Below the pieces are notes generated by a model. It was not told where the DNA came from, did no database searches, and worked only from the letters and a program-made list of their open reading frames with translations. DNA of 64,000 bases from positions 18,803 to 82,802 of the IMG/VR virus record IMGVR_UViG_3300045988_103544. One strand, given 5' to 3'. How positions within the stretch are numbered: position 1 is the first letter of the stretch; every line of letters begins with the position of its first letter. Position numbers and translations under genes: made by a program. This document shows positions 26,407-62,429 of the stretch, piece after piece. Source of the DNA: a virus.

Positions 26407-26484
26407 TGCAAGATGTGGGAATCAAACCCACGCAAGCCTTCTGGTTGGAAGCCAGATATGCGCCTTCAGCTACACTAATCTTGC
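26407..26484 (-). tRNA. tRNA-Gly (anticodon TCC)
   Basis: Cloverleaf folded by hand: acceptor GCAAGAT/ATCTTGC, anticodon stem TCTGG/CCAGA, loop CTTCCAA, T-arm GTGGG-TTTGATT-CCCAC. Confidence 0.65.
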
Positions 26485-26486
26485 AT

Positions 26487-26825: not shown

Positions 26826-26843
26826 AAATATTTAATTTAATAG

Positions 26844-26917
26844 TGGAGCGTAGGAGATTCGAACTCCTAAGAATGCCTGCGTGCAAAGCAGGTGCTGACC
26901 ATTTGAGCCGACGCCCC
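26844..26917 (-). tRNA. tRNA-Ala (anticodon TGC) with G3-U70
   Basis: Acceptor GGGGCGT/ACGCTCC (G3.U70), anticodon loop TTTGCAC, T-arm GGAGTTCGAATCTCC. Confidence 0.75.
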
Positions 26918-26927
26918 AAATTGGAGA

Positions 26928-27404
26928 TTACTCTCCAGTTAATTGTTTTATTTTAAGTTTAGCTTGTGTTAATTCATATACTAAATCAGATATAGTTTTT
27001 TTATTATCTTTAAGATGTTTTTTGAGAGCTTTAATAGCTAATTTCATGCTATTAAAGTCTTTCAAATTATTTGCTATAGATTCTAATTCTCTAAAAGACT
27101 TAGTATTATCAAATAAAGATATATTAACTTTAGCTCTTAACTCTCTAATTTTAAGATTCTGTTTCTCAATCTCATTTTCTAAAGACTGAATCTTATTATT
27201 TAAAGATTCTATACCAAGTCCATTTTCTAATTCATCTATATAGGATTCTAATTCTCCGATTTTTTGTTCTAATCCAGCATAATGCTTTTTTCTTTCAGCA
27301 TCATACTCTTTAAACCTATTTATTTTGCTTTTTAAAACAGCTATAATAAAATCCTTTTTATCATAAAAGTTTGCGTCAGATTGATAATTAAAAGTTTTTT
27401 TCAT
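26928..27404 (-). CDS. coiled-coil hypothetical protein (158 aa)
   Basis: Minus ORF rich in heptad-like K/E/L. Confidence 0.45.
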   Translation of the reverse strand: MKKTFNYQSDANFYDKKDFIIAVLKSKINRFKEYDAERKKHYAGLEQKIGELESYIDELENGLGIESLNNKIQSLENEIEKQNLKIRELRAKVNISLFDNTKSFRELESIANNLKDFNSMKLAIKALKKHLKDNKKTISDLVYELTQAKLKIKQLTGE

Positions 27405-27427
27405 ATTATTTATTTTTTTTAATTAGT

Positions 27428-27497
27428 TGTGGGTATTGGACTCGAACCAATGACCGTTTGCTTATGAGACAAACAAGCTACCACTGCTACAACCCAC
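27428..27497 (-). tRNA. tRNA-Met/Ile2 (anticodon CAT), copy 1
   Basis: Anticodon stem TTTGT/GCAAA, loop CTCATAA, T-arm ATTGG-TTCGAGT-CCAAT. Confidence 0.6.
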
Positions 27498-27507
27498 GAT
27501 ATTAAAG

Positions 27508-27579
27508 AGCTTCAAGTAGGATTTGAACCTACGACCCGCACTTTACAAGAGTGCTGCACTACCACTGTGCTATTGAAGC
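27508..27579 (-). tRNA. tRNA-Thr (anticodon TGT)
   Basis: Acceptor GCTTCAA/TTGAAGC, anticodon stem GCACT/AGTGC, loop CTTGTAA, T-arm GTAGG-TTCAAAT-CCTAC. Confidence 0.75.
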
Positions 27580-27593
27580 TTAAATAAAGGCGA

Positions 27594-27641
27594 ATATGGC
27601 ATTAGACGGGCGAACTATCGTGACCATATTCTAATAATACA
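27594..27641. other. 8-bp perfect hairpin (GAATATGG...CCATATTC) with 24-nt loop in the unassigned 130-nt spacer between tRNA-Thr and tRNA-Asp
   Basis: Perfect inverted repeat; the spacer could not be folded into a tRNA. Confidence 0.3.
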
Positions 27642-27724
27642 TTGAGCTATCAGGCATACTCGTGGATCGCCACCGCTACCTCTAACAACCGCCTAGTTAA
27701 ATGCTAGGTCCTCTCCATTATTTG

Positions 27725-27801
27725 CGGAATATAAGGGACTCGAACCCTTAGTTTTACTAGAGTGACAGTCTAGTTCCCTTACCAACAGGGCTTAATACTC
27801 C
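27725..27801 (-). tRNA. tRNA-Asp (anticodon GTC)
   Basis: Acceptor GGAGTAT/ATATTCC, anticodon stem CTAGA/TCTAG, loop CTGTCAC, T-arm AAGGG-TTCGAGT-CCCTT. Confidence 0.7.
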
Positions 27802-27812
27802 ATGTGTCTTTG

Positions 27813-27883
27813 CGCCTAGACTAGGATTCGAACCTAGGAACCTTTCGGGGCAAGTTAACAGCTTGCTGCCGTTGACCACTTGG
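27813..27883 (-). tRNA. tRNA-Asn (anticodon GTT), unusual 12-nt variable region
   Basis: Acceptor GTCTAGG/TCTAGGC with two G.U pairs, anticodon stem GCAAG/CTTGC, loop CTGTTAA, T-arm CTAGG-TTCGAAT-CCTAG. Confidence 0.45.
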
Positions 27884-27904
27884 CTACCTAGACGAAAGTC
27901 CTGA

Positions 27905-34185: not shown

Positions 34186-34515
34186 GTGGAGCATTGGAGA
34201 GTCGAACTCCAGTCACTCCGATTTGCATCAAAACGTTCTTACAGCATAGGTTTTAAAGACTATCCTTGTCTGTTAGGGTTGACAAGATTAATATTGTCAA
34301 CTTCCACCACTCTGTTCCTAAAGTATACAGAGAACTAATAAAGAAATGAAAAATAGTGCACCTTTCTGTTCCTAAGCAAGTGCTGCTCGACTTATTAGGC
34401 AGCAGCCTGATAAGCAGGAGTCATATTGATAACTCTAGCGATTATTGTTTTGTTGTCTCTCCAACTGTCTTGCTGTGTTTCTTATCTCCTCGAAGTTCAA
34501 AACCACGAATGCCCC
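34186..34515 (-). ncRNA. ssrA: tmRNA (SsrA-like), ~330 nt
   Basis: 5' end GGGGCAT pairs with 3' ATGCTCC-A, including the G3.U70 alanine identity pair. T-arm GGAGTTCGACTCTCC. Internal tag-like frame ...ARVINMTPAYQAAA followed by TAA TAA. Confidence 0.6.
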
Positions 34516-41592: not shown

Positions 41593-42040
41593 TTACAGTT
41601 TTAAATATCTACCAGTATACATAATTTTATTAGACACAATTTCCCCACAACTATTAATAGTATAGACAGCGCCTTTAGGAATTATAAAAGTTGCTATATA
41701 ACTATCATTTTCAAAAGGTATAAACATTCTTCTATTTCCGAATATCATACGTTTGCATCTATATATCCCCTTAACTATGTGAAAAGGCAGAATTACATAC
41801 AAATTGTACTCCAGTATAACTATGATAAGCTTTTTCTATCTTAAGCGTCCCATACCTTCTAGCTATCTCATTACATTCAAGGGTTGGTATTTTATATAAT
41901 ATATTTGCAGCATAATTAAAGTTTTTAATGATAGATACACACGATTGCTTATTAGCCAATGTAACTATTTTATAAACTTCAATATCTTTATCTGCAACTT
42001 GATATTTTACATTTCTTAAAATTTCTATCCAACATATAAT
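41593..42040 (-). pseudogene. frameshifted paralog of 41151-41588
   Basis: Homologous N- and C-terminal halves lie in different frames (ORFs 41771-41959 and 41593-41802). The N-terminal segment is also out of frame with the ATG at 42040. Confidence 0.4.
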
Positions 42041-42181
42041 TATTTAATTAATTTATAATCACCAATTTCAAATCCTAGTTCTGTGGTATCTAAAGACCAA
42101 ACTTCAGGAAATATTATGAAACCATCAAATGAATGACACTCTATTTCTACGCTTGAGAAAAAATACCATTTACCTGTAATA

Positions 42182-42499
42182 CTACTTTGCCCACTCTGAA
42201 TCAATATTAAGAAGTCTGAACACGTATTTAATATTATCTATTATATCTGTGAAACTATCCTGAGTATTTAAATAAATAACATAAGCTAAACGAGCCATTT
42301 CAGGAGTTTCAAAAGCAAGATTACATATAGTTCCATGATCGCCATTCTCATATTTATCACTTGGTTTAATAGAATATCCAAGTTCATTCTTCTTAATAGT
42401 GTACTCGGGACCTTTATTAAGTCTCTTTTGTAATGCATTATACATTACATTTTGTTCTCCTGGACTTAGTGAATCAATAATTTTATTTATATCCTTCAT
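42182..42499 (-). CDS. hypothetical protein (105 aa)
   Basis: Minus ORF. Confidence 0.4.
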   Translation of the reverse strand: MKDINKIIDSLSPGEQNVMYNALQKRLNKGPEYTIKKNELGYSIKPSDKYENGDHGTICNLAFETPEMARLAYVIYLNTQDSFTDIIDNIKYVFRLLNIDSEWAK

Positions 42500-42590
42500 A
42501 TGTTAATGTGTTATTTAATTAAACAAAAAGAGCCTAATTAGATTAACTAATTAGACTCTTTAAAATAGAATAATATAATAAAAGAAATAG

Positions 42591-42663
42591 TGGGCTCGCC
42601 CGGGATTGAACCGAGAATAAGAGATTATGAGTCTCCCGTTTTAACCGATTGAACTACAAGCCC
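42591..42663 (-). tRNA. tRNA-Met/Ile2 (anticodon CAT), copy 2
   Basis: Acceptor GGGCTTG/CGAGCCC, anticodon stem GGAGA/TCTCT, loop CTCATAA, T-arm CTCGG-TTCAATC-CCGGG. Confidence 0.6.
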
Positions 42664-42667
42664 GAAG

Positions 42668-42738
42668 ATGTGTCTGAGGGTCGTTAATCCTCCCCTTTCT
42701 CAGTCAAGAGAACGTTGCAACTTGCCACTAAGACACAC
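42668..42738 (-). ncRNA. tRNA-like element, non-canonical (6-nt anticodon-type loop TTGACT)
   Basis: 7-bp acceptor-like pairing TGTGTCT/AGACACA and stem TTCTC/GAGAA, but aberrant D and T arms. Confidence 0.25.
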
Positions 42739-42866
42739 TGTTTTTGAGTTTTTGTAAGTCCTCCGACTTATTAAAGTTTTCGCATAATTTTGATAAGAGC
42801 TCTACTTTCACAAGCAAAGCTCTTTTATTTTTAATAAATTAAAAGTTAAGATAATGATAGAAAAAG

Positions 42867-42944
42867 GAAATGTGGACAGATTTGAACTGTCAACCTTTGA
42901 GCTTTAACCCAACGCTCTACCCACTGGACTTGAGCTACACATTT
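42867..42944 (-). ncRNA. tRNA-like element with 6-nt anticodon loop (TTAAAG) and 14-nt D-loop
   Basis: Acceptor AAATGTG/CACATTT, D-stem GCTC/GAGC, T-arm GACAG-TTCAAAT-CTGTC; anticodon arm non-canonical. Confidence 0.3.
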
Positions 42945-43149
42945 CTATTTATACTAGTATTGCTATATAGCCTTATTTAAAAACTCATACTACTTTCGCA
43001 AGCAGTTTGAGTTTAAAAAAAAGATAAAATCTTTTACAAAACGAAAATTTTACATTACTTATAAATTTTCACAAATTCACAGTAATTATGAATGATTTTA
43101 ATTTTTCAAAACATAATAAATAATCAATTATGTAGCTCAGACAAGCTAA

Positions 43150-43254
43150 CTTAAACAAAAGGATTCGAACCTTTAATCCTCAAGAAATATTTAACGACGA
43201 CTTTAGAGGCGCTTCCGTCAATCTACTGCCGTATACCAATTCCGCCATATTTAA
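43150..43254 (-). ncRNA. 104-nt tRNA-like element carrying a CCTCTAAAG (CUCUAAA) loop motif
   Basis: Canonical T-arm AAAGG-TTCGAAT-CCTTT and 7-bp terminal pairing TTAAATA/TGTTTAA, but too long and no canonical anticodon stem. TTAAATA occurs twice, suggesting insertion/duplication. Confidence 0.25.
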
Positions 43255-43339
43255 TTAGCTTATAATCTGAACTATATTAATTTTATGAGAATTAGCATTA
43301 CCCGAATAGCACCACGTGGAGGTTTCTCATTTGCTATTC

Positions 43340-43423
43340 TAGCTCAGACGGGACTCGAACCCGTACGGACACATGTCCAATGGTGTTTAAGACCATCTCC
43401 TATACCAATTCGGATACTGAGCC
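43340..43423 (-). tRNA. tRNA-Leu (anticodon TAA), class II
   Basis: Acceptor GGCTCAG/CTGAGCT, anticodon stem ATGGT/ACCAT, loop CTTAAAC, long variable arm GGACA..TGTCC, T-arm ACGGG-TTCGAGT-CCCGT. Confidence 0.75.
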
Positions 43424-43428
43424 AAAGA

Positions 43429-43460
43429 GCAACTAATTATCTGCTAGTTGCCAACAATAT
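43429..43460. repeat. 32-nt repeated hairpin element (copy 1) immediately 5' of tRNA-Leu
   Basis: GCAACTAATTATCTGCTAGTTGCCAACAATAT, identical at 46626-46657; 7-bp stem GCAACTA/TAGTTGC. Confidence 0.6.
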
Positions 43461-43490
43461 TTATTTTATAAACCTTAAACTATTATGGTA

Positions 43491-43850
43491 CTACAATTGT
43501 TTTAACATGTTTGTAGCTATATGTAATGAAATATCCACAGTTGTATGAATATCATCATTTAATTTTAAGATATATGTATTGTTTTCATCATTCTTTCTAG
43601 TTATTTCAGATATGTATTTATGATTTATCAAAAATCCTTGTGTTGCAAGAATAAAATCAATACATAAAACATGTGTAATATCTTTTAATGAACAACACAC
43701 ATCAGTTTTATAGCCATGAACATCTATTATAGTACTATATTTACCAGATGTTTTTATACATACAATGTCATTTATGTTTATCTGTCTGTACTCTCGTCCC
43801 TTAAACACTAAAAATGTATCAGAGTCAATCTGTATTGTTTTTATTTCCAT
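43491..43850 (-). CDS. hypothetical protein (119 aa)
   Basis: Minus ORF. Confidence 0.4.
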   Translation of the reverse strand: MEIKTIQIDSDTFLVFKGREYRQININDIVCIKTSGKYSTIIDVHGYKTDVCCSLKDITHVLCIDFILATQGFLINHKYISEITRKNDENNTYILKLNDDIHTTVDISLHIATNMLKQL

Positions 43851-43855
43851 ATCTC

Positions 43856-44245
43856 TTAACCCATAATAAAACGAGCATCTACAATATTTTCAGGATGATA
43901 AATAGTCTTAATTAATCCTTCCATTACCCATTTTACAACATCAGAATGTTTAACTCCACTTTTAAGTTCATGGTAAAACATTAAATCATAAGCTTCTCCA
44001 CTTTTAAAAGTTACTTTGATTTTAAATGTAGGTTTTTCATCATTTCTAATAAGTTCGTCCATTTCTTCATCAGTTACCATGTAACTGAACAGGGAATTAG
44101 AAAGATGTTCTTTTTCGTACTTCTTTTCAAGTTCAGTTAAGTTTAACTTTGCACACTTGAGTACATGTTTACAATCAAATTTCTTAGCATTTTCTATTTG
44201 TGCTATTAAATTGGTTTTACTAATAAAATAATCTTGTCTTGTCAT
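43856..44245 (-). CDS. hypothetical protein (129 aa)
   Basis: Minus ORF. Confidence 0.4.
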   Translation of the reverse strand: MTRQDYFISKTNLIAQIENAKKFDCKHVLKCAKLNLTELEKKYEKEHLSNSLFSYMVTDEEMDELIRNDEKPTFKIKVTFKSGEAYDLMFYHELKSGVKHSDVVKWVMEGLIKTIYHPENIVDARFIMG

Positions 44246-44436
44246 AATTTATCTATAATTAATGTGTTAATAATCTATTTAAATAATAGGCGATTTTCAC
44301 TGGTTATATTTAAACTATTCCATTGTCCTCAGCTATCTAACGTTCTTTCTCTTTTTAACCCAAATGATTAATTTTAAGGTAATTACGCTATTTAATAGAG
44401 TTACTGAGAGTTGTTTAGTACCTATTTATTAATTAG

Positions 44437-44509
44437 TAGAGGATGGCAGAGTCGGACTGCCTATTAGGAATCCAAAGTTCCTCGTGTGAAGCCGTTACAC
44501 TAATCCTCC
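44437..44509 (-). tRNA. tRNA-Gln (anticodon TTG)
   Basis: Acceptor GGAGGAT/ATCCTCT, D-stem GTGT/ACAC, anticodon stem AGGAA/TTCCT, loop CTTTGGA, T-arm GGCAG-TCCGACT-CTGCC. Confidence 0.7.
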
Positions 44510-44563
44510 GAATAAAATACTATTCTCACGAACCATATTTTATAATTACAAGTATGAATAAAG

Positions 44564-44644
44564 CGGAGAAAGAAGGATTCGAACCTCCGAGCCATGACTA
44601 ACACCTTAGCAGGGTGCCACTTTCGACCACTCAGTCATTTCTCC
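44564..44644 (-). tRNA. tRNA-Ser (anticodon GCT), class II
   Basis: Acceptor GGAGAAA/TTTCTCC, anticodon loop CTGCTAA, long variable arm, T-arm GGAGG-TTCGAAT-CCTTC. Confidence 0.7.
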
Positions 44645-44757
44645 AATAAAGCTTCCTATCTTCACAGACAAGAAGCCTAACAACTCTTTAACGTTATAAA
44701 GTCCGCTGACTTTATATTTTAAACATTAATCGTATTAGTTTTTTAAATATGGAAGAG

Positions 44758-44791
44758 TAGCACTAGCGATGCTTGAAATCGCCTTTCCACT
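44758..44791 (-). tRNA. 3' half (anticodon-stem 3' strand, T-arm, acceptor 3' strand) of a tRNA gene split by the HNH insertion
   Basis: AGTGG-AAAG-GCGAT-TTCAAGC-ATCGC-TAGTGCT-A; pairs with the 5' half at 45542-45575. Confidence 0.45.
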
Positions 44792-45498
44792 TATTTATTT
44801 TCTAATATTAATTCTCTTAATTCTTTTTTAGTATGGGGTATACCATAATTTTTACACCATTTTCCAATGGTATTATCAGTAACTCCATACATTTCCCCTA
44901 TTTTAGTGAAAGGGTATTCTTTTATTAAACTTAATAGTTTTTCTTTATCAGGTCTATCTTTAGGATCTACTTTAAATTGGTTTCTGTGTTTTACAGCACA
45001 TTTTATACAGTATGTAGAACCTCTAGATATTTCTTTTCCACAATCTTTACAATAGTTTATATTTTTTAATTTTTTAGTACCCCAATTATCAGTTTGAGAA
45101 TGACAATTTGGACATAATATCTATAAGTTCTCTAATCTATTATCATCATGTTTACCATTAATATGATGTAATTGATAAGAGATAGGATTATCTAACCAAT
45201 ATCCATTCTTACAAGGACATTTAGGATTTTCACATTCATTCTTTTTAAGACCTTCTTTAATTAGTCTCTTTAAAAGATTGCTAGATTTATAATTACATCC
45301 ATCTACTAAAATATCTTCTAAGCTTTTAGCTTTTACTATATCTCTTTTATTTAGAAAGTGATATTGTATTCCGTAACTATTTAAAGTTTCTTCTAAAACT
45401 TTTATAGCTGAACCGGAAACTGATTTACCTAGATGCCTTAATACATCACTTAAACTTGTAGATTTATTTACAATTTCCTATAATTCTTCTTTACTCAA
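44791..45498 (-). CDS. HNH homing endonuclease, paralog of 54798-55616; uses TAG as a sense codon (2 in-frame TAG); probable TTG start
   Basis: Continuous frame ...KLSKEEL(TAG)EIVNKSTSLSDVL...SYQLHHINGKHDDNRLENL(TAG)ILCPNCHSQTDNWGTKK... ending TAA. The second TAG sits where the paralog has ENLRFLCPNCH and many HNH proteins have ENLQ. No long ORF in the track here. Confidence 0.6.
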
Positions 45499-45541
45499 TT
45501 TATTATTAATTTAATTATTGTTTAATATAATATCTTTTAAA

Positions 45542-45575
45542 TAAGTGGCGTCCTAACCAGCTAGACGATAGTGCC
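45542..45575 (-). tRNA. 5' half (acceptor, D-arm, anticodon-stem 5' strand) of the split tRNA gene
   Basis: GGCACTA-TC-GTCT-AGCTGGTTA-GGAC-G-CCACT. Acceptor GGCACTA pairs with TAGTGCT and anticodon stem CCACT with AGTGG in the 3' half ~770 nt away. Confidence 0.45.
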
Positions 45576-45640
45576 AAGTAGATTCTCTATCTTCACAGAC
45601 TGAAAATCTCGTGTATTACAAATGAATACTTTTAATAAAT

Positions 45641-45714
45641 TAAAAATTAATGGTGCTCTCTGACAGTACTGACCTGTCTTCCCGAAATTAAAAGTTTCGT
45701 GCTTCACCTTAAAG
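45641..45714 (-). tRNA. tRNA-Lys (anticodon TTT), CCA encoded
   Basis: Acceptor GCTCTCT/AGAGAGC-A-CCA, anticodon stem CGAAA/TTTCG, loop CTTTTAA, T-arm GACAG-GTCAGTA-CTGTC. Confidence 0.65.
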
Positions 45715-45770
45715 CTTAGAGAGCTAATTTATAATCTTATTTTGCATAAGAATTTTATTCTTGTATATAG

Positions 45771-45840
45771 TGGAGATACGTGGAATCGAACCACAATCTC
45801 AGGATTTTCATCGTGCTCTAACCTTTTGAGCTATATCTCC
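45771..45840 (-). ncRNA. tRNA-like element (70 nt) with canonical acceptor, D and T arms but no foldable anticodon arm
   Basis: GGAGATA/TATCTCC acceptor, GCTC/GAGC D-stem, T-arm TGTGG-TTCGATT-CCACG; middle ACGATGAAAATCCTGAGAT does not form a 5-bp stem/7-nt loop. Confidence 0.3.
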
Positions 45841-45948
45841 ATAGCCCACATTTCTATAAAGGAGAATAGTGGTAACACCTACCTATACTAATAAATTTAT
45901 TAGTCAGGATTTATCTAAACACACTAACAATATATCAAATTAAATTTG

Positions 45949-46032
45949 TACGGTAGAAAGGATTCGAACCAATGACCTTCTCGAAATGACCTATTATAAA
46001 AAGAGATGCTCTAACCACTGAGCTACTACCGT
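45949..46032 (-). ncRNA. tRNA-like element (84 nt) with enlarged 20-nt anticodon-region loop
   Basis: ACGGTAG/CTACCGT acceptor, GCTC-AGTGGTTA-GAGC D-arm, T-arm ATTGG-TTCGAAT-CCTTT; central stem TCTC/GAGA encloses TTTTTATAATAGGTCATTTC. Confidence 0.35.
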
Positions 46033-46087
46033 AAGTACTAGTTTATATCGGAAAACTAGTAAAACGTTAACACATTATTATGGAAAC

Positions 46088-46486
46088 TTAAAAGCCGAAT
46101 GAAAACATGGTATCTGCGGAAGTACTAAGAGTTACGTAAGGAATTTTATTTCTTACTGTAATAAAGACAATAAAGCGTCTTCCTGTATTAACCTCTCCGC
46201 AATTATGGATTTCTACTCCATCCTTCATTTCAGAAGAGTATATTTTTAATACCATTTTACCAAACTTACTATTACTAAAAGTAATAGTTTTTCTAGCTTC
46301 ATTATATACTACTGAAGTTTTAATATATAATGGGTCACTCCATTCACCATCTTGATAAACAGTGATAGAACCATAATTAAACGCATGAGCTATTGTAGTT
46401 AATACAATAAAACTCATTAATAAAATAATCTTTTTCATATTACTCAATCTTTTTAATGTTAGTACGGAGTAAAGGATTCGAACCAA
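46088..46486 (-). CDS. secreted hypothetical protein (132 aa)
   Basis: Signal peptide MKKIILLMSFIVLTTIAHA. Confidence 0.45.
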   Translation of the reverse strand: MVRILYSVLTLKRLSNMKKIILLMSFIVLTTIAHAFNYGSITVYQDGEWSDPLYIKTSVVYNEARKTITFSNSKFGKMVLKIYSSEMKDGVEIHNCGEVNTGRRFIVFITVRNKIPYVTLSTSADTMFSFGF

Positions 46487-46543
46487 TATAACCTCTCTAT
46501 GAATTGTGGAAATGAGGCGCTCTAGCCATTAAGCTAACTCCGC
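46463..46543 (-). ncRNA. tRNA-like element (81 nt) with enlarged 20-nt anticodon-region loop
   Basis: GCGGAGT/ACTCCGT acceptor, D-stem GCTT/GAGC, same unusual T-arm ATTGG-TTCGAAT-CCTTT; stem GCCTC/GAGGT encloses ATTTCCACAATTCATAGAGA. Confidence 0.35.
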
Positions 46544-46548
46544 ATGTG

Positions 46549-46621
46549 TGGTCCTGGTGAGAATCTAACTCACGACCCGGAATTTAGAAGATTCCTGCTC
46601 TATACACTGAGCTACAGGACC
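46549..46621 (-). tRNA. tRNA-Arg (anticodon TCT)
   Basis: Acceptor GGTCCTG/CAGGACC, D-arm GCTC-AGTGTATA-GAGC, anticodon stem GGAAT/ATTCC, loop CTTCTAA, T-arm GTGAG-TTAGATT-CTCAC. Confidence 0.75.
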
Positions 46622-46625
46622 AAGT

Positions 46626-46657
46626 GCAACTAATTATCTGCTAGTTGCCAACAATAT
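46626..46657. repeat. 32-nt repeated hairpin element (copy 2) immediately 5' of tRNA-Arg
   Basis: Identical to 43429-43460. Confidence 0.6.
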
Positions 46658-47053
46658 ATATGAACTTTACAGAATTACTCTATTATTTCAGTTTCAGATA
46701 TACACCATTTACCATTAATTTTAACGGCTTCTACCTGTTTATTATTTACTGTCTCAAGAGATACTTTATTTTCTAAAGTTCTATTGAGAGAAATAATGTA
46801 TTTGTTAGCCTCTTCTTTAGAATTGACTACACGAGACTGAATGCTATTGTTAATAACATTATATATCTTTCTTAAAACTTTCATAATTATAATTTTTATA
46901 AAGTTAATAGCATATAGAGCATTGTTTCTCAACAACACTCTACTATAGTTTCAAATATCCATTGTAAAAGTAAAAATTTGTTAATTTCAAATTTTATAGT
47001 TTAAATCATCATATTTTGCAAATTTTAAACTTTAATACAATACATAGACAATT

Positions 47054-47569
47054 TTATAGTATGTCTGCAATATCCACATCATCATCTCCTGGATCTGGAT
47101 AATCTTCAATATCACATGTTGTATCATCCTCATTATATTTTGAATGATAAGCAATGTGCTCTAACTTATTAATAATATTGTTTACTTTAGCTAATCTATT
47201 ATAAGTAGAATCCAAAGCCTGATTTAAAGCATTTGCAATAACTTTACACATAGTATGCATAGCTTTATCTCTTACAATTCGATTAGCTACTACCTGGTCG
47301 TCCTTATCATTTTTACTTAAAGTAATTTTAGAAACGACTGTTACAGTAGAATTATCAACAGTAAGTCCCCAAGAAGCAAGATTTTTAATGAAAATCTTTC
47401 TTTCTTTAGAAGTCGCAATTTTAAGGAATATAGAAGTATCAGCACTTGAAACTTTTATATTAGCTCCTTCTAAGTAATCCATTATATACTCTAAATCACA
47501 AGACATAGTACAAAACGTACTGTTACCAACTCTTTCAATGCTGTACTTTACTTTCTTAATTGTCTGCAT
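47054..47569 (-). CDS. hypothetical protein (171 aa)
   Basis: Minus ORF. Confidence 0.45.
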   Translation of the reverse strand: MQTIKKVKYSIERVGNSTFCTMSCDLEYIMDYLEGANIKVSSADTSIFLKIATSKERKIFIKNLASWGLTVDNSTVTVVSKITLSKNDKDDQVVANRIVRDKAMHTMCKVIANALNQALDSTYNRLAKVNNIINKLEHIAYHSKYNEDDTTCDIEDYPDPGDDDVDIADIL

Positions 47570-54747: not shown

Positions 54748-54782
54748 TCTCCTATGGTGTAATGGTTAGCACAGAAGACTCT
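54748..54782 (+). tRNA. 5' exon of intron-containing suppressor tRNA (predicted anticodon CUA after splicing; Gln-type U1-A72)
   Basis: TCTCCTA-TG-GTGT-AATGGTTA-GCAC-A-GAAGA-CTCT, ending on U (a group I 5' splice site follows a U). Confidence 0.6.
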
Positions 54783-55785
54783 TAAAAATTTTAAAGTATG
54801 GAAAATAAAATTTATAAACTTACGGATAAAGAGTTTTCAGACTTAGTTAAGTCAAGTCTGAATATCTCAGAAGTTTTATTTAAACTTGGATATACTACTG
54901 TTGGAAACAGTTGGGGATATTCACAAGTTAAACAAAGAATGCAAGATTTAAATTTATCAGGTAAAGATTTTAGAGGCAAATCAGCTATAGTCGACTGTAA
55001 TGAAAAGAAAGAAATAGATGCTTCTAAATTATTATGTGAAAATTCAAAACACGCACGTAATATATTAAGAAGCTATATATTAAGAAACAAATTACTTCCT
55101 TATACATGTGCAATATGTGGAATTACAGAATGGCAGGGTAAGACTTTATCTCTAGAATTAGACCATATTAATGGTGTAAATAATGATAATAGAATAGAAA
55201 ATCTAAGATTTTTGTGCCCTAATTGTCATAGTCAAACCACTACTTATGGTGCTAAAAATAAACAAAAAGTAGAATCTAAATACGAACTTTCTGATGAATT
55301 AAAGAATTTAATTATTAGTTCTTATATAGAATTAAAAAATCAAAAGAAAGTTGCTGATAGATATAATTTAAATCCTAAAGCAGTAAAACAAGTTTTATCA
55401 GAAGCTGGATTAACTAAACAAAATCAAAAGTATGTTATACAATATGACTCTTCTCATAATGAAATAAGAAGATTTGGGTGTATAGCAGAATGTTGTCAAT
55501 GGTTAATGGATAATAATTTAGTAACTACTAAATTAATGAAAACTTGTAGAGCAACTCTAAATAGAAATGTTGGCATTCTTTGGAAAAACTATTACTTTGA
55601 AATATTGGATGCTTAAAGGATAATCCATAATCTTTAAGTAGAATCTCTTTTAATCGACTTGGAAGCGTATATACTTAGTATAAAGTGACAGGGCGCAAGT
55701 TTAAATACAGCGTGAACGACTAAATAAAGAGACTGGTCCTAGGACTGGATGTGATAGTCTAATCCTCTACAGAGGTGTTAAAATG
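54783..55785 (+). mobile_element. Group-I-like self-splicing intron (~1003 nt) in the tRNA anticodon loop, carrying an HNH homing endonuclease ORF
   Basis: Starts 15 nt before the HNH ORF. The 3' 170 nt are GC-richer and structured, with R-like (AACGACTAAATA) and S-like (GATAGTCTAATCC) group I core elements. The last nucleotide is G (55785), as expected for omega-G. Confidence 0.5.
54798..55616 (+). CDS. HNH homing endonuclease (intron-encoded)
   Basis: 272 aa, standard code; HNH motif LELDHINGVNNDNRIENLRFLCPNCHSQ; paralog of 44791-45498. Confidence 0.7.
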   Translation: MENKIYKLTDKEFSDLVKSSLNISEVLFKLGYTTVGNSWGYSQVKQRMQDLNLSGKDFRGKSAIVDCNEKKEIDASKLLCENSKHARNILRSYILRNKLLPYTCAICGITEWQGKTLSLELDHINGVNNDNRIENLRFLCPNCHSQTTTYGAKNKQKVESKYELSDELKNLIISSYIELKNQKKVADRYNLNPKAVKQVLSEAGLTKQNQKYVIQYDSSHNEIRRFGCIAECCQWLMDNNLVTTKLMKTCRATLNRNVGILWKNYYFEILDA

Positions 55786-55822
55786 AAATCTTTTAGCCAG
55801 GGTTCGAATCCTTGTGGGAGAA
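55786..55822 (+). tRNA. 3' exon of the suppressor tRNA
   Basis: AAA-TCTTT-TAGC-CAGGG-TTCGAAT-CCTTG-TGGGAGA-A. Pairs with the 5' exon (acceptor TCTCCTA/TGGGAGA, anticodon stem GAAGA/TCTTT). Spliced loop is CTCT+AAA = CUCUAAA. Confidence 0.6.
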
Positions 55823-56345: not shown

Positions 56346-57485
56346 TTATTGCTTTATATATAAAAAATTTCCTCCACCAGTATTCTAAGCATCATATTTT
56401 AATAAATCATCTCTGGTAAATATTTTATCAAAGGTTCTTAATCCTGAATGATAAGTTCCATTATCTAGAGTATATAAATCTACTGTTTTAACATTATTTC
56501 TAGATTTCATAGCTTCTATCTCATCTCTAATATTATCTATACTTCCGGAAACTAAACGAATTTCTTTACCAGCCTATATAATTATTCTTCCTCCAGCTAT
56601 AGAACCATATTCATCAGTTCTATTATTATTAGCTAAAAAATTTAGTCTGTTATTTACAGATTTACCATTTACTATAGCATTTAATATAGGACTTTTTCTA
56701 GAACCATTAGAATTACTTTCCATGAATAATACATTACCTTTAGAATCTGTTTTAAAACCAGTAACAGTATTTTTATATATTGGAGAAATCATACTTCCAT
56801 TAGGAATATCTGAATATTTACCAAAAACAAATTTACCAATAGAATCTATACCTATATAATTCTAATTATTAGGAGATATACTTTCTTTAGATTTGAAATT
56901 AGAAAAAGCAGTAATAGGAGCTGCTATACTATTTATAGGAGTATAATCACCTCTATTTCTATAACCAAAAGTATGCTTTGTTAAATTTATGGATTCTGGT
57001 ATACGATATCTTCTAGAGTTTATTTTAGTAGTATCATTTATAGTATAACTATTTGGAGATATTTCTATTTCTAAATTTTCTCTCCCCTTATTTTTAGTTA
57101 CTTTTTTATTAGGAATTTTAATTCTTTTACTAGTATGCTCAGGTTCTGAATCAAAAAATAACTATAGTTTTCTACTTAATCCATTTCCTACTAAATTAAT
57201 CAACTATTTACCACGTTCCCACATTGTTTCTTCTTTCTATTTAGAAGTAGATATTTTTTTAGCAGTGGGCATTTCTTTATATTTTGCCGGGTGGTATACT
57301 AAAGTAGATGTTGGTTTATAGGGATCTACTCCTTTAGCCTAAACCTATGGAAATATTATACTATTAGCTTTATCAGAATTAATTTTAAAAGGAATCTTAT
57401 TTGATTTTCTTCTACCATACAACTACCCATCTTCATACCAGTAATCATATATTGAATCATTATCAGTAATTACCTATACAGCCAT
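56346..57485 (-). CDS. late protein L8 (~379 aa), TAG-recoded (~11 in-frame TAG)
   Basis: Continuous frame from ATG 57485 (MAVQVITDNDSIYDYWYEDGQ...) through ORF 56574-56792 to ...KYDAQNTGGGNFLYIKQ then TAA at 56346. Only TAG interrupts it. Confidence 0.55.
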
Positions 57486-58606
57486 GGTGTTATTATTATT
57501 ACTGGAGTTCCTAATTTATCTAATATTTTTAATCCTAACACAGCTTTACTGTCTAAATCATATGAACTCCATTTCTACTTATATTCATTAGGATTAAACT
57601 TCCAAATATCTTGTGCCCTATACACTTTCTTACCATTAGATGTTCCTTCCTAAACTAAATGTCCAGCAGCATCAACTCCATTATCTCCAAAGTCTAGATT
57701 ATTATTAGCACCTTTCCAAGGAGTTTTATTAGTTATATTAGAAGCTTTCTGCATAGGTTTCTTAGTAAAGAAATCTAAAGTTTCAGTATTTTCATATACA
57801 GGAATATCTTTATATGGATATATCTTTCTTATATAGTTCTCATGTGGACCATAATCTACATTTATTTTCTTTACTCCATAAGAAGGATTTATAGTTTTAT
57901 TATATAAATAAGCATCAATCATATCATTACCTTTAGCTGCTTTCTAAAATCCAGTATATGCTTCAGGAGCATAGGTATTGTAACCTACACCAGTTGATAT
58001 ATAAGACAATACTCCAGCATGCTTTTTAGGACTTGCTTTATGCATATTATATACTATGTCTTCTATAGGATTAGCATTATTAGAAGTTCTCATAGCTACT
58101 TCTACTCCACGTTTTAAAGGAGCTTTTACAGCATATCCTATTGCAGGAAGCATTACTAAATAATTACTAGCTTTAGTTGGATTCTTAGATATATCTAAAG
58201 CACCTTTAGTATAATCATATACTGCCTAAGCAGCTGGAGCTAAAGCATAACCTATTCCTGAATTAACTAATGCTTTAATAGGACTAGTATTATTATTCCA
58301 ACTATCTACTTCTCTAGCATAAGCTCCTTTTATAGGATGGGTTCTATTCTTATTACTATAATTATATAATTTAGAATGAGTATGTCCTCCCTATTTTATA
58401 GTCCCTCTATTATCTACAAATACATCTTGTACCCCATTTAAAGTTCTAACTGGAATAACTCTCTACTAATATTTAGCACCAAGATATGGAGATTTAAATC
58501 TAAGATGATTTAGTCTATTATAATATTCCATATCTATAGCCATCTATTTATTCCGAGTATTATTATTTACTCCTTTATTTTGTTTACTTTCATCTACTAT
58601 TGGCAT
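57470..58606 (-). CDS. late protein L7 (~378 aa), TAG-recoded
   Basis: ATG 58606 (MPIVDESKQNKG...) runs continuously through track ORFs 57944-58153 and 57650-57922, joined by TAGs, to TAA at 57470. Confidence 0.5.
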
Positions 58607-58608
58607 AT

Positions 58609-58824
58609 TTATACTTTATTTTTCCATATACTAGTTATACTATCTATACCTAGTAATCCCATACAACAATATAAAACTGTATCTATCATATCAGGAGCTT
58701 GTATCTAACTAATAGAACAGTATATTAGAATAATTAAACTTACTATCCATCCTAATATTCCACATACTCTTTTACTACTTATTCCAGTATGTGCTGTTAT
58801 TAATTTAATTAAAAACTATTTCAT
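58609..58824 (-). CDS. small 2-TM membrane protein (holin-like, 71 aa), TAG-recoded
   Basis: MK(TAG)FLIKLITAHTGISSKRVCGILGWIVSLIILIYCSIS(TAG)IQAPDMIDTVLYCCMGLLGIDSITSIWKNKV; its ATG overlaps the upstream TGA stop (ATGA). Confidence 0.4.
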
Positions 58825-59959
58825 TTCTAAGAATTATTTAAGAACGGTAAACTCATACCTATAGGTGCTGCTATTTTGAATACATTAGGATCTAACTTAG
58901 GAATAGTTAATCTAGAATCTCGTAATATATTTCCAGTTATTCCTTTAAGAGGTATTCTATTCCTTTTCATATTAAGTGGAATTAAAAAATCCTCATTTAT
59001 TTCATACTCAATATTAGGATAATTACCTATTATATTAGAAGCTTTATACTAGTTAAGCTACGTTTTTGGTATATCTATATACTATAATTCTATAGGATTG
59101 TCAACTCCTTCTTTTATAGCTTTTCTTCGAGTATTAGAAGCATATATTAATGTTTTTCTTGGGTTATCAGTAAACCACATTCCTGTATATTTAGCTGTCC
59201 CATCCGGAGATGGAGTAAATTTACCATTAGTACCAGAAGCTCTATATAATCTCACCATACCCTAATCTAATTTAGGTTTCTAAAATATTCCTACTTCAAT
59301 AGGTTCTTTAGTTCCTTTCATAGTAAGTTGTCTAGTTTCATTCTAGATAAATCCAAAGTCTTTACCAAATCTATTTATACCATGAATACCTCCTTTAGAT
59401 ACAGAACCCCAAGTAGAGAGATTAGCACCTTCAGGTACTTCATCTGCAACCTTAGCAAATAGCTACATTTTATTACCATAGCTTAAACCATTTCTATCTG
59501 TTTTAAAATGAACTGAATAATTATTAGGTTCAGCATCCTTTACTAGTCCAAATCTTTGATTAGGCTATTGTTTAAAGAAATAAGAAGTAGCTTCATTTCC
59601 TTCAGCTTTTCTAGTACTCCAAGCTTTTCTAGTAGGTCTGTAATAAGATAACTGCATAATAGGATTATCTCCTGTTGTGTATTCTTTAGCAGCTAAGTTA
59701 TTAGTAATTCCTTGAGATACATTTCTAGTTAAATTTCCAGCAGTCTCATTAAGTAAACTATTTCTTGCCCAATGTGAAACTGTATTCTAACCCATCTTAG
59801 AGAGTGCTATTTTACCTAAACCTAATCCTAAATTTCCTGCAGCAATTCCTACTACAAATTCTCCTACTGGATCTGCTCCTGACATAGCTCCTGCTTGAGG
59901 ATTAGTACTAGTTTTAGTATTTCCATACTAATCTTTTACTGTAACTATCTCACTATGAG
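58821..59959 (-). CDS. late protein L5 (~379 aa), TAG-recoded (~13 in-frame TAG)
   Basis: ATG 59959 MPHSEIVTVKDQYGNTK...GGIHGINRFGKDFGFIQNE...LPFLNNSQK ending TGA 58821; possible longer N-terminus upstream. Confidence 0.45.
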
Positions 59960-60262
59960 GCATACTCCTCTTAGCTAAAGCTAATCTTTCTTTAATTGGT
60001 AGATTATTATATTTAGCTTTTAAATTTTTAGCGGCAGGCTATAATCTATTTTTTAAATTAGTAGGATTAAGAATTCCTCTAGATTGAGTATTTCTAGTTA
60101 TTTCTTAATCCTACTTAGATTGTTGCCACGGTAATCCAGTGGTTTTAAAATTTAATTTACCTGTTTTCTAATATTTAGATATCCATTTCATATCTCTTTA
60201 AATATTTATCCCATAACTATTTATCTCTCTCACTTACAAAATCTAAAAATCTTTGTAATTCC

Positions 60263-60778
60263 TCAATCTTTTCTGTCAAAATATATGTATCCATTATTAT
60301 TTTTATTGGGTTTTAAATTAAATCCACTACCTTTAGTTTTAGTAACATACAATGTTGGGAGAACATTAGCTCCATCATAAACTACTTTAGTTCCGCCATT
60401 ATTATAGTCATAATCGGAACCTAGATAGTCCATAGTATAATCTAAAGGCTAACCACTATTAGGTTTTATATATTGATCTTTACTTAAATAATATATCTTA
60501 TTATCTTTACTCCAAGATTTATCTCCTAAATCTGGATAAGTCGGATGAGTTTTAGTTTTATAAGTCCCTGAAGCTCCTTCATCAGGAAAATGCCCAGTAG
60601 GAATATACCTATTCCAATTATGTGCTAGAATACTGTTTAACTATAACCAAGCTACTATAGGTTGGTCATTATAGTATTTTCTATAATCGTAATGGTCTTT
60701 AGATAAATCCTAATTACCCCATGCTTGAGATAACTATTTACTCCAAATATTATAATTATTATTATTTATTTCTGGCAT
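60263..60778 (-). CDS. late protein L4b (~171 aa), TAG-recoded
   Basis: MPEINNNNYNIWSK(TAG)LSQAWGN(TAG)DLSKDHYDY...YFDRKD ending TGA; start overlaps the upstream gene end. Confidence 0.45.
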
Positions 60779-61406
60779 GTATATCAATAATATTAGGTAT
60801 AATCTAAATAGGTAACTATATCTTAGGACTTAATTTAATAACATCATTTGCTATTATAGTATTCCTTTTAGCTACCTATTCTAAATAAGATCTATTTAAT
60901 TCCTAGTTCAACTTAGATGTGAAGTATGAACCTTGACTTGGTCGAACTCCTTTTTTAGCTAATTTTTTAGTAGTTTCTTTTTTCTACTAATTTAATACTA
61001 CGTCGACTTGTCTCTTCCGCATAGCATTAACTCTTGGAGAATGATGTTTAGGGTAATAACCAGGTTTGTGTACGCTAGATCTAAGAAAATTAGAACCTCC
61101 CTTAGCTAAAGCTGATGCAAATTTAGCTCCTAATATATCTGCCCCAGTTTCCAAAGTATTTCATACGGCATTTCCAAAATTACTTGGGGATTCTTTAAAA
61201 GTCTTGTACCATCCTCTACCAGCTTGATAACCATCTATAACTAAAGAAGGCAACTAACCTACTCCAGCAATAATTCCTCCTATAGGAGCACCTACAGCGG
61301 TAGTACTTATACCTGCACCTAGTCCTAAACTACCTAAAGATATAGCTGCCGCGGTAGGTTCCCATTTATCTACTTGACGATCCAATTCTTCAAAAATTTT
61401 AGGCAT
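60762..61406 (-). CDS. late protein L4, Gly-rich membrane-like segment; TAG-recoded, plus one in-frame TGA
   Basis: MPKIFEELDRQVDKWEPTAAAISLGSLGLGAGISTTAVGAPIGGIIAGVG(TAG)LPS...FGNAV(TGA)NTLETGADILGAKF...; ATG overlaps the TAA of the upstream gene (ATGCCTAA). Confidence 0.4.
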
Positions 61407-62201
61407 TTCTAAATTTATTTATATATTTTGCAACACTAGTACCATTGGCATCAGACCCTCCTGCAATACCATACTTATAATAATTTTTAGTCCATTTTGG
61501 ATTTAACCATGATGCTGCTATAGCTTCTCCAGTAGCTGCTATACCATTATTTCTTAAAAATCTTGCATTATCATCATATAATTGTGATGCGGCTAATACT
61601 TGTGCATCAGGACTATTTTTAAACTGTTCTCTAGATAAATTAGAATATTTATTTCTAGTACTATCTATAAACTAGAACCATCCAGCAGCAGAACTATTTT
61701 TAGACTAAGCTTTAGGATTAAATCCTGATTCTAGAGAAGCTATTTTCATTAAAGTAGTTTTCTTGTTTCCAGTGATACCATATTTATCTAAAGTTTGTTC
61801 TAGTATCTTTTTACTTTTACTAGGGTTAGACTAAGCTTTAGGATTAAATCCTGATTCTAGAGAAGCTATTTTCATTAAAGTAGTTTTCTTGTTTCCAGTG
61901 ATACCATATTTATCTAAAGTTTGTTCTAGTATCTTTTTACTTTTACTAGGGGTATTATGATTTAATTTAAGCTGAGTATATTTATATTGTACAGGTTCTT
62001 TAGCTTTATTAATAGAAAAATATCCATCTAAATTTAAACCATTAATATGAAAATCTCCAGTATTTAATTCAGGAATATACTAATATTGTTTAGGAGTAAA
62101 ATCTAAATCTAAACCTTTACTTTTTAGTACTTCTGTAGCAGGCTTATCAGGAATATCTAAAGCTTCATATTTAAAATATTCACTCATAATTTTATCAAAC
62201 C
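61399..62201 (-). CDS. Lytic transglycosylase (SLT domain) protein, TAG-recoded (5 in-frame TAG), with a 42-aa tandem duplication
   Basis: MSEYFKYEALDIP...KIASLESGFNPKA(TAG)S...SSAAGWF(TAG)FIDSTRNKY... TAG falls on the conserved Q of the SLT GLMQ motif. ES catalytic motif present. Confidence 0.6.
61702..61953. repeat. Perfect 126-bp tandem duplication (2 copies) inside the SLT gene
   Basis: AGACTAAGCTTTAGGATTAAATCCTGATTCTAGAGAAGC...TTACTTTTACTAGGG occurs twice back to back with period 126; duplicates 42 aa including the ES catalytic motif. Confidence 0.8.
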
Positions 62202-62429
62202 ATTATGTATTTTAGAATGACAATTTTTACAAACACAAACTGTTTGAGATAATTCTTTAATAAATAAATCTGTAGGTATATGACTTACAGCTTGTGATAT
62301 ATTAAATAATTTTTCTCCAGTATGATGAAATTCTAAACAACATTTAGCTGATTCACCACATATTATACATTGTGTTTTATGTTCATTTAAAATCTTTTTA
62401 TTTTCTTTATAATATTTATTCTTACGCAT
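62184..62429 (-). CDS. Small HNH endonuclease (81 aa), standard code, inserted between recoded late genes
   Basis: CIICGESAKCCLEFHHTGEK...CVCKNCHSKIH zinc-finger/HNH motif; no in-frame TAG; overlaps both flanking recoded genes. Confidence 0.6.
   Translation of the reverse strand: MRKNKYYKENKKILNEHKTQCIICGESAKCCLEFHHTGEKLFNISQAVSHIPTDLFIKELSQTVCVCKNCHSKIHNGLIKL

Follow-up and report, generated by a model that had tools for sequence, protein, structure and literature searches.

We analysed a transfer RNA (tRNA) gene cluster at positions 42590-46621 of a 64,000-nucleotide (nt) stretch of viral DNA, which corresponds to positions 18,803 to 82,802 of IMG/VR record IMGVR_UViG_3300045988_103544 and is called the window throughout. 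A first-pass annotation had picked out five tRNA-like elements with aberrant anticodon regions in this cluster, here named E1 to E5. They lie where that annotation had placed them, on the minus strand like all tRNA genes of the cluster (Table 1). The window has a G+C content of 30%. Its closest database relative was MT835539.1, labelled L001 below, an unverified 55-kb scaffold of human faecal origin named 'Bacteriophage sp.', which matched 71% of the region at 93% identity; short 96% matches were obtained to the Prevotella megaphages Lak-A and Lak-C. The HNH endonuclease open reading frame (ORF) of the cluster contains two in-frame TAG codons where motif relatives have Gln and terminates with TAA, which serves as a stop codon in this phage. 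These TAG codons, together with TAG-rich genes at 56-63 kb, identify the window as a fragment of a code-15 (TAG-recoded), Lak-like Prevotella megaphage. In-frame TAGs cluster in genes at 56346-63186 (4-11 per gene) and are nearly lacking elsewhere in the window, which is the block-wise pattern described for Lak phages.

Five tRNA-like genes with aberrant anticodon arms

The cluster was searched with the Rfam tRNA covariance model (RF00005; gathering score 29 bits) using cmscan, with hits considered up to E <= 10, and with ARAGORN under default settings, with intron options and at lowered thresholds. For comparison, we used MT835539.1 and about 25 IMG/VR contigs with the same cluster, mostly from sample 3300045988, which were retrieved by exact patterns and are referred to by L numbers. 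Default ARAGORN reported tRNAs for Met, Leu, Gln, Ser and Arg at 42590-46621, plus an odd 'tRNA-Stop(tta)' at 45948-46032. With tRNA-Lys included, the cluster holds six intact canonical tRNAs, fewer than the approximately ten counted initially. Lowering the ARAGORN thresholds produced about 70 spurious tRNA calls in the AT-rich window. With intron options, ARAGORN reported E4 as a Stop(tta) tRNA whose anticodon is interrupted by an 11-nt intron, and another aberrant gene, E6, as Leu(taa) with a 25-nt intron, both of which we judged to be forced fits. E6 and a tRNA gene split by the HNH ORF had been overlooked in the first-pass annotation.

Table 1. Coordinates of the tRNA, tRNA-like and associated features in the window
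Feature	Position	Strand	Description	Detection
tRNA-Met(CAU)	42590-42663	-	canonical; last gene of the Leu..Met operon	ARAGORN, Rfam
E1	42668-42738	-	cloverleaf-like RNA; stem UUCUC/GAGAA, 6-nt loop UUGACU	
E2	42867-42944	-	normal acceptor, D and T arms; stem UUGGG/CUCAA, 6-nt loop UUAAAG	Rfam 26.2 bits
E6	43150-43254	-	105-nt class-II-like tRNA-like gene; 14-nt loop, long variable arm	Rfam 32.5 bits, with insertion
Theta-type ribozyme candidate (hepatitis delta virus (HDV)-like)	43285-43339	-		Rfam HDV-F-prausnitzii 26 bits, E = 0.098
tRNA-Leu(UAA)	43339-43424	-	canonical	ARAGORN, Rfam
Split tRNA (ortholog of tRNA-Glu UUC)	44758-45575	-	752-nt insert at 44792-45543	
tRNA-Lys(UUU)	45654-45724	-	canonical	Rfam 43.3 bits; ARAGORN only at lowered threshold
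E5	45771-45840	-	tRNA-Phe(GAA) allele; 3-nt deletion (GAC) in the 5' strand of the anticodon stem	Rfam 48.5 bits
E3	45949-46032	-	tRNA body; 4-bp stem UCUC/GAGA around 20 nt (UUUUUAUAAUAGGUCAUUUC)	Rfam 53.2 bits
116-aa ORF	46088-46438	-	signal-peptide-like N-terminal segment; bracketed by E4 and E3	
E4	46463-46543	-	tRNA body; stem CCUC/GAGG around 18 nt	Rfam 46.3 bits
tRNA-Arg(UCU)	46548-46621	-	canonical; first gene of the Arg..Gln operon	ARAGORN, Rfam
tRNA-Sup(CUA)	54748-55822	+	real TAG suppressor; split after U35 by a 1003-nt insert (54783-55785)	

In line with the first-pass annotation, a normal anticodon arm, with 5 bp in the stem and 7 nt in the loop, is missing from all five elements, both in the Rfam alignments and by direct reading of the sequence, and none combines such an arm with U33, a purine at position 37 and a conserved anticodon as a decoding tRNA does. 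As encoded, none of the five is predicted to be able to read codons. The acceptor and T arms, described as good in all five, are so in E2 to E5, which have a 7-bp acceptor stem, a D arm and a UUCRANY T loop, though with mismatches in the T stems of E3 and E4; E1 has the closing stem, but its T loop is aberrant. The 6-nt loops of E1 and E2 are read directly from the sequence, and of the two 20-nt loops reported, that of E3 has this length and that of E4 spans 18 nt within its stem (or 16 nt in an alternative fold, a 5-position stem with an A.A mismatch). The odd T arm shared by E3 and E4 is AUUGG-UUCGAAU-CCUUU, in which cmscan flagged two U.U mismatches. The anticodon arm of E5 proved unfoldable, the minimum-energy fold yielding just a 3-bp GAU/AUC hairpin there.

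Automated tools did not fold all five as ordinary tRNAs, and Rfam and ARAGORN returned indels, odd calls or nothing. Three elements (E3, E4 and E5) exceeded the Rfam gathering score. E2 fell below it in the window, and its orthologs reached 48-52 bits; E1 had no match at E <= 10. The helices of E1 and E2 were 98% paired across orthologs, compared with 21-71% for slid controls. These scores and pairing frequencies indicate that the five elements are not chance matches. Minimum-energy folding of single sequences was uninformative (z = -0.6 for E3, -1.5 for E4 and +1.2 for E6). A blastn search of E1 to E4 against GenBank phages gave MT835539.1 as the sole match, with no homologs in the deposited Lak-A, Lak-B and Lak-C genomes, and a scan of the Lak-A1 tRNA cluster found canonical tRNAs non-orthologous to E1-E4. 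The elements belong to a Lak-like subclade other than that of the deposited Lak genomes.

Conservation, covariation and apparent decay of the elements

Across 14 E2 orthologs aligned as a cloverleaf, 98% of the cells were paired, compared with 21-48% in slid controls. All five pairs of the anticodon stem changed on both sides among these orthologs, and a compensatory switch was found between close relatives (U27-A43 in the window, C27-G43 in L001). The loop was 6 nt long in 11 of the 14 (CAUUAA, CGUAGA and UUAAAG among them), 7 nt in L076 (CACCUAA, position 33 being A) and 8 nt in L005; the 8-nt loops were UAUAUGAA and CUAGGUAA. Further relatives had 5-nt loops (UGUAA, UAUAA, UUCAA), and L160, an unrelated contig that shares the T-arm pattern and the layout of the cloverleaf, had a 4-nt loop (UAGC), giving a range of 4-8 nt with unrelated sequences. 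Several E1 and E2 loops lacked U33, and ARAGORN labelled E2 orthologs as '2-base anticodon', Tyr(gta) or Arg(cct). Since a non-7-nt loop occurred in lineages with at least four different stem sequences, the stems appear to have diverged after the loop had turned aberrant. The covariation of the stem and the variability of the loop indicate that the E2 hairpin is maintained by selection and that its loop is not an anticodon loop.

E1 consists of a 7-bp closing stem, an indel-prone 'D' arm, a 5-bp stem and a 4-bp 'T' stem with the loop AUUAACGAC. This loop lacks the UUCRA signature, which explains why Rfam missed the element; ARAGORN made no call. In 11 E1 ortholog variants, the three helices were 98.3% paired, and compensatory changes were found at five pairs, of which one lies in the T-like and another in the closing stem. 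The D-like region occurred in four length variants among orthologs, the loop sequence was not conserved, and L001 and L070 carried a wholly different anticodon arm (CCCUG-CUAGCAAU/G-UAGGG). E1, or a partial second copy of it, always ended 4-8 nt upstream of a canonical tRNA (Met or Ile), and the window copy stops 4 nt ahead of tRNA-Met. A hammerhead or other self-cleaving ribozyme was considered for E1 and rejected, as its CUGA..GAAA string mismatches the core and is not kept in L001.

E3 and E4, which are paralogs, share one 17-nt T-arm sequence and are similar in their acceptor and D arms; their arrangement is Arg-4 nt-E4-24 nt-ORF-55 nt-E3. In the Rfam alignments, the anticodon arm held 15 nt where 4 were expected in E3 and 11 nt where 2 were expected in E4. 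The E4-ORF-E3 block as a whole is absent from other Lak-like contigs, which have unrelated sequence there between tRNA-Arg and tRNA-Phe. With the neighbouring 351-nt ORF as a yardstick for evolutionary rate (6-24 substitutions, or 2-7%, in nine comparisons), E3 orthologs differed at only 0-3 of 84 positions. The 55-nt spacer between the ORF and E3 (46033-46087, minus strand) showed no substitution in the same nine comparisons; this spacer contains a hairpin (ACUAGUUU..AAACUAGU). E3 variants nevertheless included three D-stem-breaking substitutions, a 13-nt deletion between 8-nt direct repeats (L009), and poly-U runs of 3, 4 or 5 immediately before the putative anticodon. E4 orthologs had changes at 1-11 of 81 positions, a rate about equal to or above that of the ORF, and E4 of L028 had a D-arm deletion. 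Metagenomes scanned for a pattern specific to the T arm and acceptor of E3/E4 gave no matches, two IMG/VR scans with 5'-half patterns found no further E3/E4 orthologs, and no antisense target of the E3 and E4 loops was found in the window at up to 3 mismatches.

Using the 'Stop(tta)' call, an ochre suppressor tRNA-Stop(UUA) was also considered for E3. ARAGORN used a different fold for this call, in which the stem is mismatched and a variable region of 16 nt stays unpaired, and the anticodon called in E3 orthologs shifted with the U run from Stop(tta) to Tyr(ata) or '??(ta)'. Because the call flips with this length polymorphism, we rejected the suppressor as an artefact.

In the Rfam alignment of E5, the anticodon arm has 10 nt instead of the 13 of the model. 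In L001, the orthologous gene is a canonical tRNA-Phe(GAA) (66.9 bits), and nine ortholog variants including that of L001 are canonical, with the arm CGGGA-CUGAAAA-UCCCG or a close equivalent. The GAC deletion is present in the window and in five other variants, two of which also carry G34>A, and further stem changes were found in the window copy and in L030. Between the deletion alleles and the window copy, 2-9 of 70 positions differed (3-13%), compared with 2-7% for the neighbouring ORF. Given the intact orthologs and the fast evolution, E5 looks like a pseudogene, a crippled tRNA-Phe allele that appears to be persisting and decaying.

On these comparisons, the five elements would fall into two groups. 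The first would contain structurally maintained tRNA-like RNAs, namely E2, E1 and probably E3, whose acceptor and T arms and hairpin appear to be kept by purifying selection and compensatory changes while the loop is free to vary. The second would contain decaying copies, namely E5 and probably E4, the latter with a fast-evolving loop and disabling deletions in relatives. The pseudogene status proposed initially for such elements thus fits E5, with its 3-nt deletion relative to an intact tRNA-Phe, and is plausible for E4, but does not suit E2 and E1, which show compensatory changes, or E3, which shows few substitutions. The insertions or introns proposed as a second option exist as extra sequence in E3 and E4; neither a bulge-helix-bulge nor a ribozyme core that would indicate their removal was found. 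The third option, altered decoders in a genome reprogramming termination, is not supported, given loops that are not conserved as anticodons and the unstable ARAGORN call for E3.

Mobile insertions and other features near the cluster

The split tRNA in the cluster is an ortholog of tRNA-Glu in which the anticodon arm has given way to a new stem, CCACU/AGUGG, that encloses the insert, and no UUC anticodon is present. The HNH endonuclease ORF runs through almost all of this insert and so leaves no room for a ribozyme core; no Rfam group I match was obtained for it at E <= 10, and no intact tRNA-Glu was found in the 64-kb window. In L028 (5261-5399), the same allele has lost the HNH ORF and retains a 26-nt insert in the loop, which provides a precedent for short inserts as leftovers of mobile insertions. 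Canonical tRNA-Glu orthologs had anticodon stems that differed wholesale, with the rest of the tRNA nearly invariant.

The insert of tRNA-Sup(CUA) contains an HNH ORF (54798-55616; Pfam HNH) followed by about 170 nt and a final G, and this tRNA is intact in L009 and L042. The insert looks like a group I intron by its U|...G| boundaries and the ORF-then-170-nt layout; the Rfam Intron_gpI model gave no match to it, and it showed no similarity to the group I core of L075, in which a tRNA-Leu holds an HNH ORF and an Rfam-significant group I intron. As late genes of the phage hold up to 11 TAGs each, the Sup(CUA) insert is presumably spliced. The insertions in Sup(CUA) and in the tRNA-Leu of L075 point to the anticodon loop as an insertion hot spot.

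The 14-nt loop of E6 (UUGACGGAAGCGCC) is conserved, and E6 occurs in about 12 related contigs, some of them with deletions, and is absent from L001. The theta-type ribozyme candidate abuts the 3' end of tRNA-Leu, starting at the next nucleotide, and near-identical copies are present in L070, L031, L076 and L055. In L009, tRNA-Sup(CUA) is followed by a diverged copy whose P2 stem is compensatory (GAGAA/UUCUC versus UAGAA/UUCUA); the element is absent after the Sup tRNA of the window itself.

Four hairpins restricted to the cluster (minus strand; 42802-42813, 42990-43001, 44656-44667 and 45587-45598, plus flanking stems) have covarying stems and a conserved loop YUGYGAA(A/G)(G/A)UAG, for example CUUGUGAAAGUAG and GUCUGUGAAGAUAG. 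They precede E1, E2, Ser and Glu, in each case at a distance of 12-62 nt from the tRNA or tRNA-like gene, and none matched Rfam. An identical 31-nt repeat (CAACTAATTATCTGCTAGTTGCCAACAATAT on the plus strand) is found at 43430-43460 and 46627-46657, directly upstream of tRNA-Leu and tRNA-Arg, and is probably the promoter of both tRNA operons.

Elsewhere in the window, a second tRNA cluster (26406-27893, minus strand) holds Gly, Ala, Met, Thr, Asp and Asn tRNAs with small ORFs between them; several of the tRNAs, with lengths of 77-82 nt and low Rfam scores (30.9 bits for Gly), may have non-standard features. The phage encodes a transfer-messenger RNA at 34186-34515 (minus strand) with the tag peptide ARVINMTPAYQAAA, and the tag of the L054 ortholog is slightly different. 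A 681-aa NAMPT/NAPRTase-macro domain fusion (19854-22696, minus strand) adjoins a weak ribose-phosphate pyrophosphokinase-like ORF; this locus resembles the nicotinamide adenine dinucleotide (NAD) salvage module used by phages against NAD-depleting defences.

Unrelated phage contigs also carried tRNA-like families with covarying anticodon stems and non-7-nt loops (L002, L012, L015, L041 and L048; L160; L003, L004, L008, L023 and L033). One of these families, the T-arm pattern matches L002, L012, L015, L041 and L048, had loops of 2-5 or 11-13 nt, and a class-II family had an 8-nt loop for which ARAGORN called a 4-base anticodon 'ctta'. Such genes thus occur outside Lak-like phages as well.

Interpretation and comparison with known systems

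We give an even chance to the reading that the five elements are genuine tRNA-derived genes that do not decode and act at most as processing punctuation. From the observed homology, structures, covariation, lesions, rates and positions, we infer transcription, cleavage and the lack of decoding. The elements would be co-transcribed with the neighbouring tRNAs and the small ORF, the transcripts would fold into a tRNA shape, and ribonuclease P (RNase P) and 3'-processing enzymes would cut them. The cut elements would be at most processing punctuation, like the t-elements of plant mitochondria, and would deliver no amino acid on the ribosome. The tight gene spacing (4, 24 and 55 nt around E4, the ORF and E3, and 4 nt between E1 and Met) suggests a role as marks for RNase P and 3'-end processing, and the spacing of E4 and E3 and of E1 and its tRNA places tRNA-like folds next to tRNA or mRNA ends as in t-elements. 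The theta-type ribozyme candidate in the same operon supports selection on tRNA processing here. The lesions may lie in the anticodon arm because this is where mobile insertions land in the cluster.

Several points weigh against processing punctuation. The acceptor/T domain is sufficient for RNase P and RNase Z, so that the strong covariation of the 'anticodon' stems of E2 and E1 exceeds what punctuation needs, and a canonical tRNA is an equally good processing mark. The conservation of E3 extends to its 20-nt loop and hints at a sequence-specific function beyond this model. The 5' part of the E3 and E4 loops keeps the canonical Y32-U33-NNN-A37 (UAU in E3; UCC or GCC in E4), with the extra nucleotides following position 37/38 in an intron-like placement. 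Finally, the transcript and RNA ends ascribed to the elements are themselves predictions.

This placement would be expected if E3 (Ile-UAU) and E4 (Gly-UCC) were functional tRNAs with 9-11-nt introns 3' of the anticodon, removed at the RNA level by a pathway such as an endonuclease and an Rnl2-type RNA ligase, a reading that we regard as doubtful. The inserts would then be miniature versions, in the same place, of the 'enigmatic introns' of Lak phages, in which tRNA-Gly(TCC) has an 87-nt intron directly after UUCCA; Lak genomes encode T4 RNA ligase 2 (Rnl2-type) and a CCA-adding enzyme. Rfam puts the extra nucleotides at positions 35-38, and the insert is fixed, with no E3 or E4 ortholog lacking it among those found. 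The loops can be read in two registers. In the first, E4 reads Y-U-UCC-A and E3 U-U-UAU-A, followed by the extra 9-11 nt at 37/38. In the second, equally regular one, both paralogs have U-CAU at an equal distance from the 3' stem, with the extras on the 5' side. The first register is favoured by L039, in which UUNCCA is kept while CAU and most of the remaining loop have changed. UUNCCA is present in seven of eight E4 variants, with wobble position 34 as the sole change there (UCC>GCC, giving U-U-GCC-A in L039); only in L039 can CCA pair with UGG of the insert (3 bp). Every E3 variant has UUUAUA, and purifying selection acts on E3, but the E3 poly-U run of 3, 4 or 5 on the 5' side of the 'anticodon' shifts the register. 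Further against introns, no bulge-helix-bulge could be drawn by inspection, folds leave the loop open, and no Intron_gpI match was obtained at 42000-47500 at E <= 10, inserts of 9-11 nt being too short for a ribozyme core. No RNA ligase, kinase or splicing endonuclease was identified by Pfam in the 20 largest ORFs of the 64-kb window (genome about 0.5 Mb), E4 evolves as fast as the ORF, and disabling deletions occur in L009 and L028. Protein-dependent tRNA splicing is not known in bacteria, which also counts against this reading. Its broader form, in which the E3 and E4 inserts and the 26-nt Glu insert of L028 are all introns removed by protein-dependent cutting and ligation, perhaps with a phage Rnl2-type ligase, seems decidedly improbable. 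If true, these would be the first tRNA introns found beyond archaea and eukaryotes that do not splice themselves, and they would explain the 'enigmatic' Lak introns.

We consider it unlikely that E2, E1 and E3 are decoys or competitive inhibitors of host enzymes that attack or sense tRNAs (for example, anticodon nucleases, acceptor-end toxins or Cas13 collateral cleavage), or charged non-decoding tRNAs used outside translation. Selection on the whole cloverleaf including the anticodon stem, with the loop, the usual nuclease target, shortened or altered, is consistent with this, as are the fast turnover of anticodon stems in canonical cluster tRNAs such as Glu, the Lak RNA-repair genes, which imply a tRNA-directed host attack, and the comparable genes with 2-13-nt loops in unrelated phage contigs. 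However, no defence system or target was identified and the evidence is comparative only, a decoy for an anticodon nuclease would normally need an anticodon loop, and E5 and E4 resemble decay.

It is slightly less likely still that all five are neutral, functionless pseudogenes, dead copies in a fast-turnover cluster. E5 and E4 behave in this way, disabling deletions occur in some lineages of E1 (D arm), E3 (L009), E4 (L028) and E6, and every Lak genome holds several 'Pseudo' or 'Undet' tRNAs (Devoto et al., PMC6784885). Against this stand the compensatory double substitutions in the E2 and E1 stems, even between close relatives, the non-7-nt loop common to E2 lineages with at least four different stems, and the conservation of E3 and its upstream spacer far beyond that of the adjacent coding sequence. 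Least probable by far are altered decoders, either an ochre suppressor (UUA) in E3 or doublet, quadruplet or frameshifting tRNAs with 6- or 8-nt loops: this reading draws on the tRNA-Stop(tta) call, on the recoding of TAG and on normal-size Sup(TTA) tRNAs reported elsewhere in Lak genomes, and appears already largely refuted by the comparative data, since the E3 call changes to Tyr(ata) or '??' in orthologs differing by 1-2 U, TAA is a stop codon here, the E1 and E2 loops are unconserved and several lack U33, and a real suppressor tRNA(CUA) exists.

Automated callers mislabel these elements (E3 as 'tRNA-Stop(UUA)'; E2 orthologs as '2-base anticodon', Tyr or Arg), and such labels risk being over-read as recoding machinery in phages with reassigned stop codons. 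If selection maintains E2, E1 and E3 although they lack an anticodon, they would represent a non-translational use of the tRNA shape in megaphages, as processing marks or decoys. The cluster also offers a concrete route by which a homing-endonuclease or intron insertion in an anticodon loop may leave a short residual insert.

Compared with the introns that archaea and eukaryotes carry between positions 37 and 38, the extra nucleotides of E3 and E4 likewise stand immediately 3' of a plausible anticodon; they lack a bulge-helix-bulge, and the alternative register puts them 5' of CAU. We know of no tRNA splicing endonuclease in bacteria. Group I-intron tRNAs with homing endonuclease ORFs have their counterparts in Sup(CUA) of the same clade and in the tRNA-Leu of L075, whereas the E3 and E4 inserts are far below ribozyme size and the HNH insert of tRNA-Glu has no room for a core and no Rfam match.

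Theta ribozymes, which are minimal HDV-like ribozymes, adjoin phage tRNAs, and cleavage of tRNA 3' trailers has been suggested as their role in such phages (Kienbeck et al. 2024, PMC10879173). They share with the present elements the position of a cis RNA element at a tRNA end in TAG-recoding gut phages, and one candidate lies in this cluster. Unlike them, the five elements have the shape of a tRNA and not of a double pseudoknot, and they would rely on host RNase P and RNase Z instead of self-cleavage. The t-elements of plant mitochondria are tRNA-like RNase P/RNase Z processing signals for mRNA ends (PMC1920247). In both systems, degenerate tRNA-like folds adjoin mRNA or tRNA ends in polycistronic transcripts, and t-elements require only the acceptor/T domain and no decoding. 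The phage elements differ in keeping a full cloverleaf with a covarying anticodon stem and in being bacterial or viral rather than organellar, and their cleavage is predicted.

A close likeness is to the Lak phages, which carry 'Pseudo', 'Undet' and several 'Sup' tRNAs and have 'enigmatic introns' of 79-141 nt directly after the anticodon, including that of tRNA-Gly(TCC) (Devoto et al. 2019, PMC6784885). The same phage group, code-15 recoding and over-long, unclassifiable or insert-bearing tRNAs are common to both, and in both a Gly(TCC) tRNA has an insert after UUCCA. The Lak introns start with (U)ACA, hold a tRNA-like (acceptor/T-arm) minihelix and are inserted after position 36/37 (PMC6784885, Table S6). 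The insertion site of E3 and E4 is the same, but their inserts are 9-11 nt long, contain no minihelix and show no similarity to the Lak introns. PMC6784885 contains no description of the family with 4-8-nt loops (E2), of the E1 cloverleaf or of the tRNA-Phe deletion allele. These results extend the 'pseudo-tRNAs' and 'enigmatic introns' known in Lak phages without adding new decoders or a new category, and the short inserts, the 4-8-nt loops and the deletion allele differ in kind from the published Lak cases.

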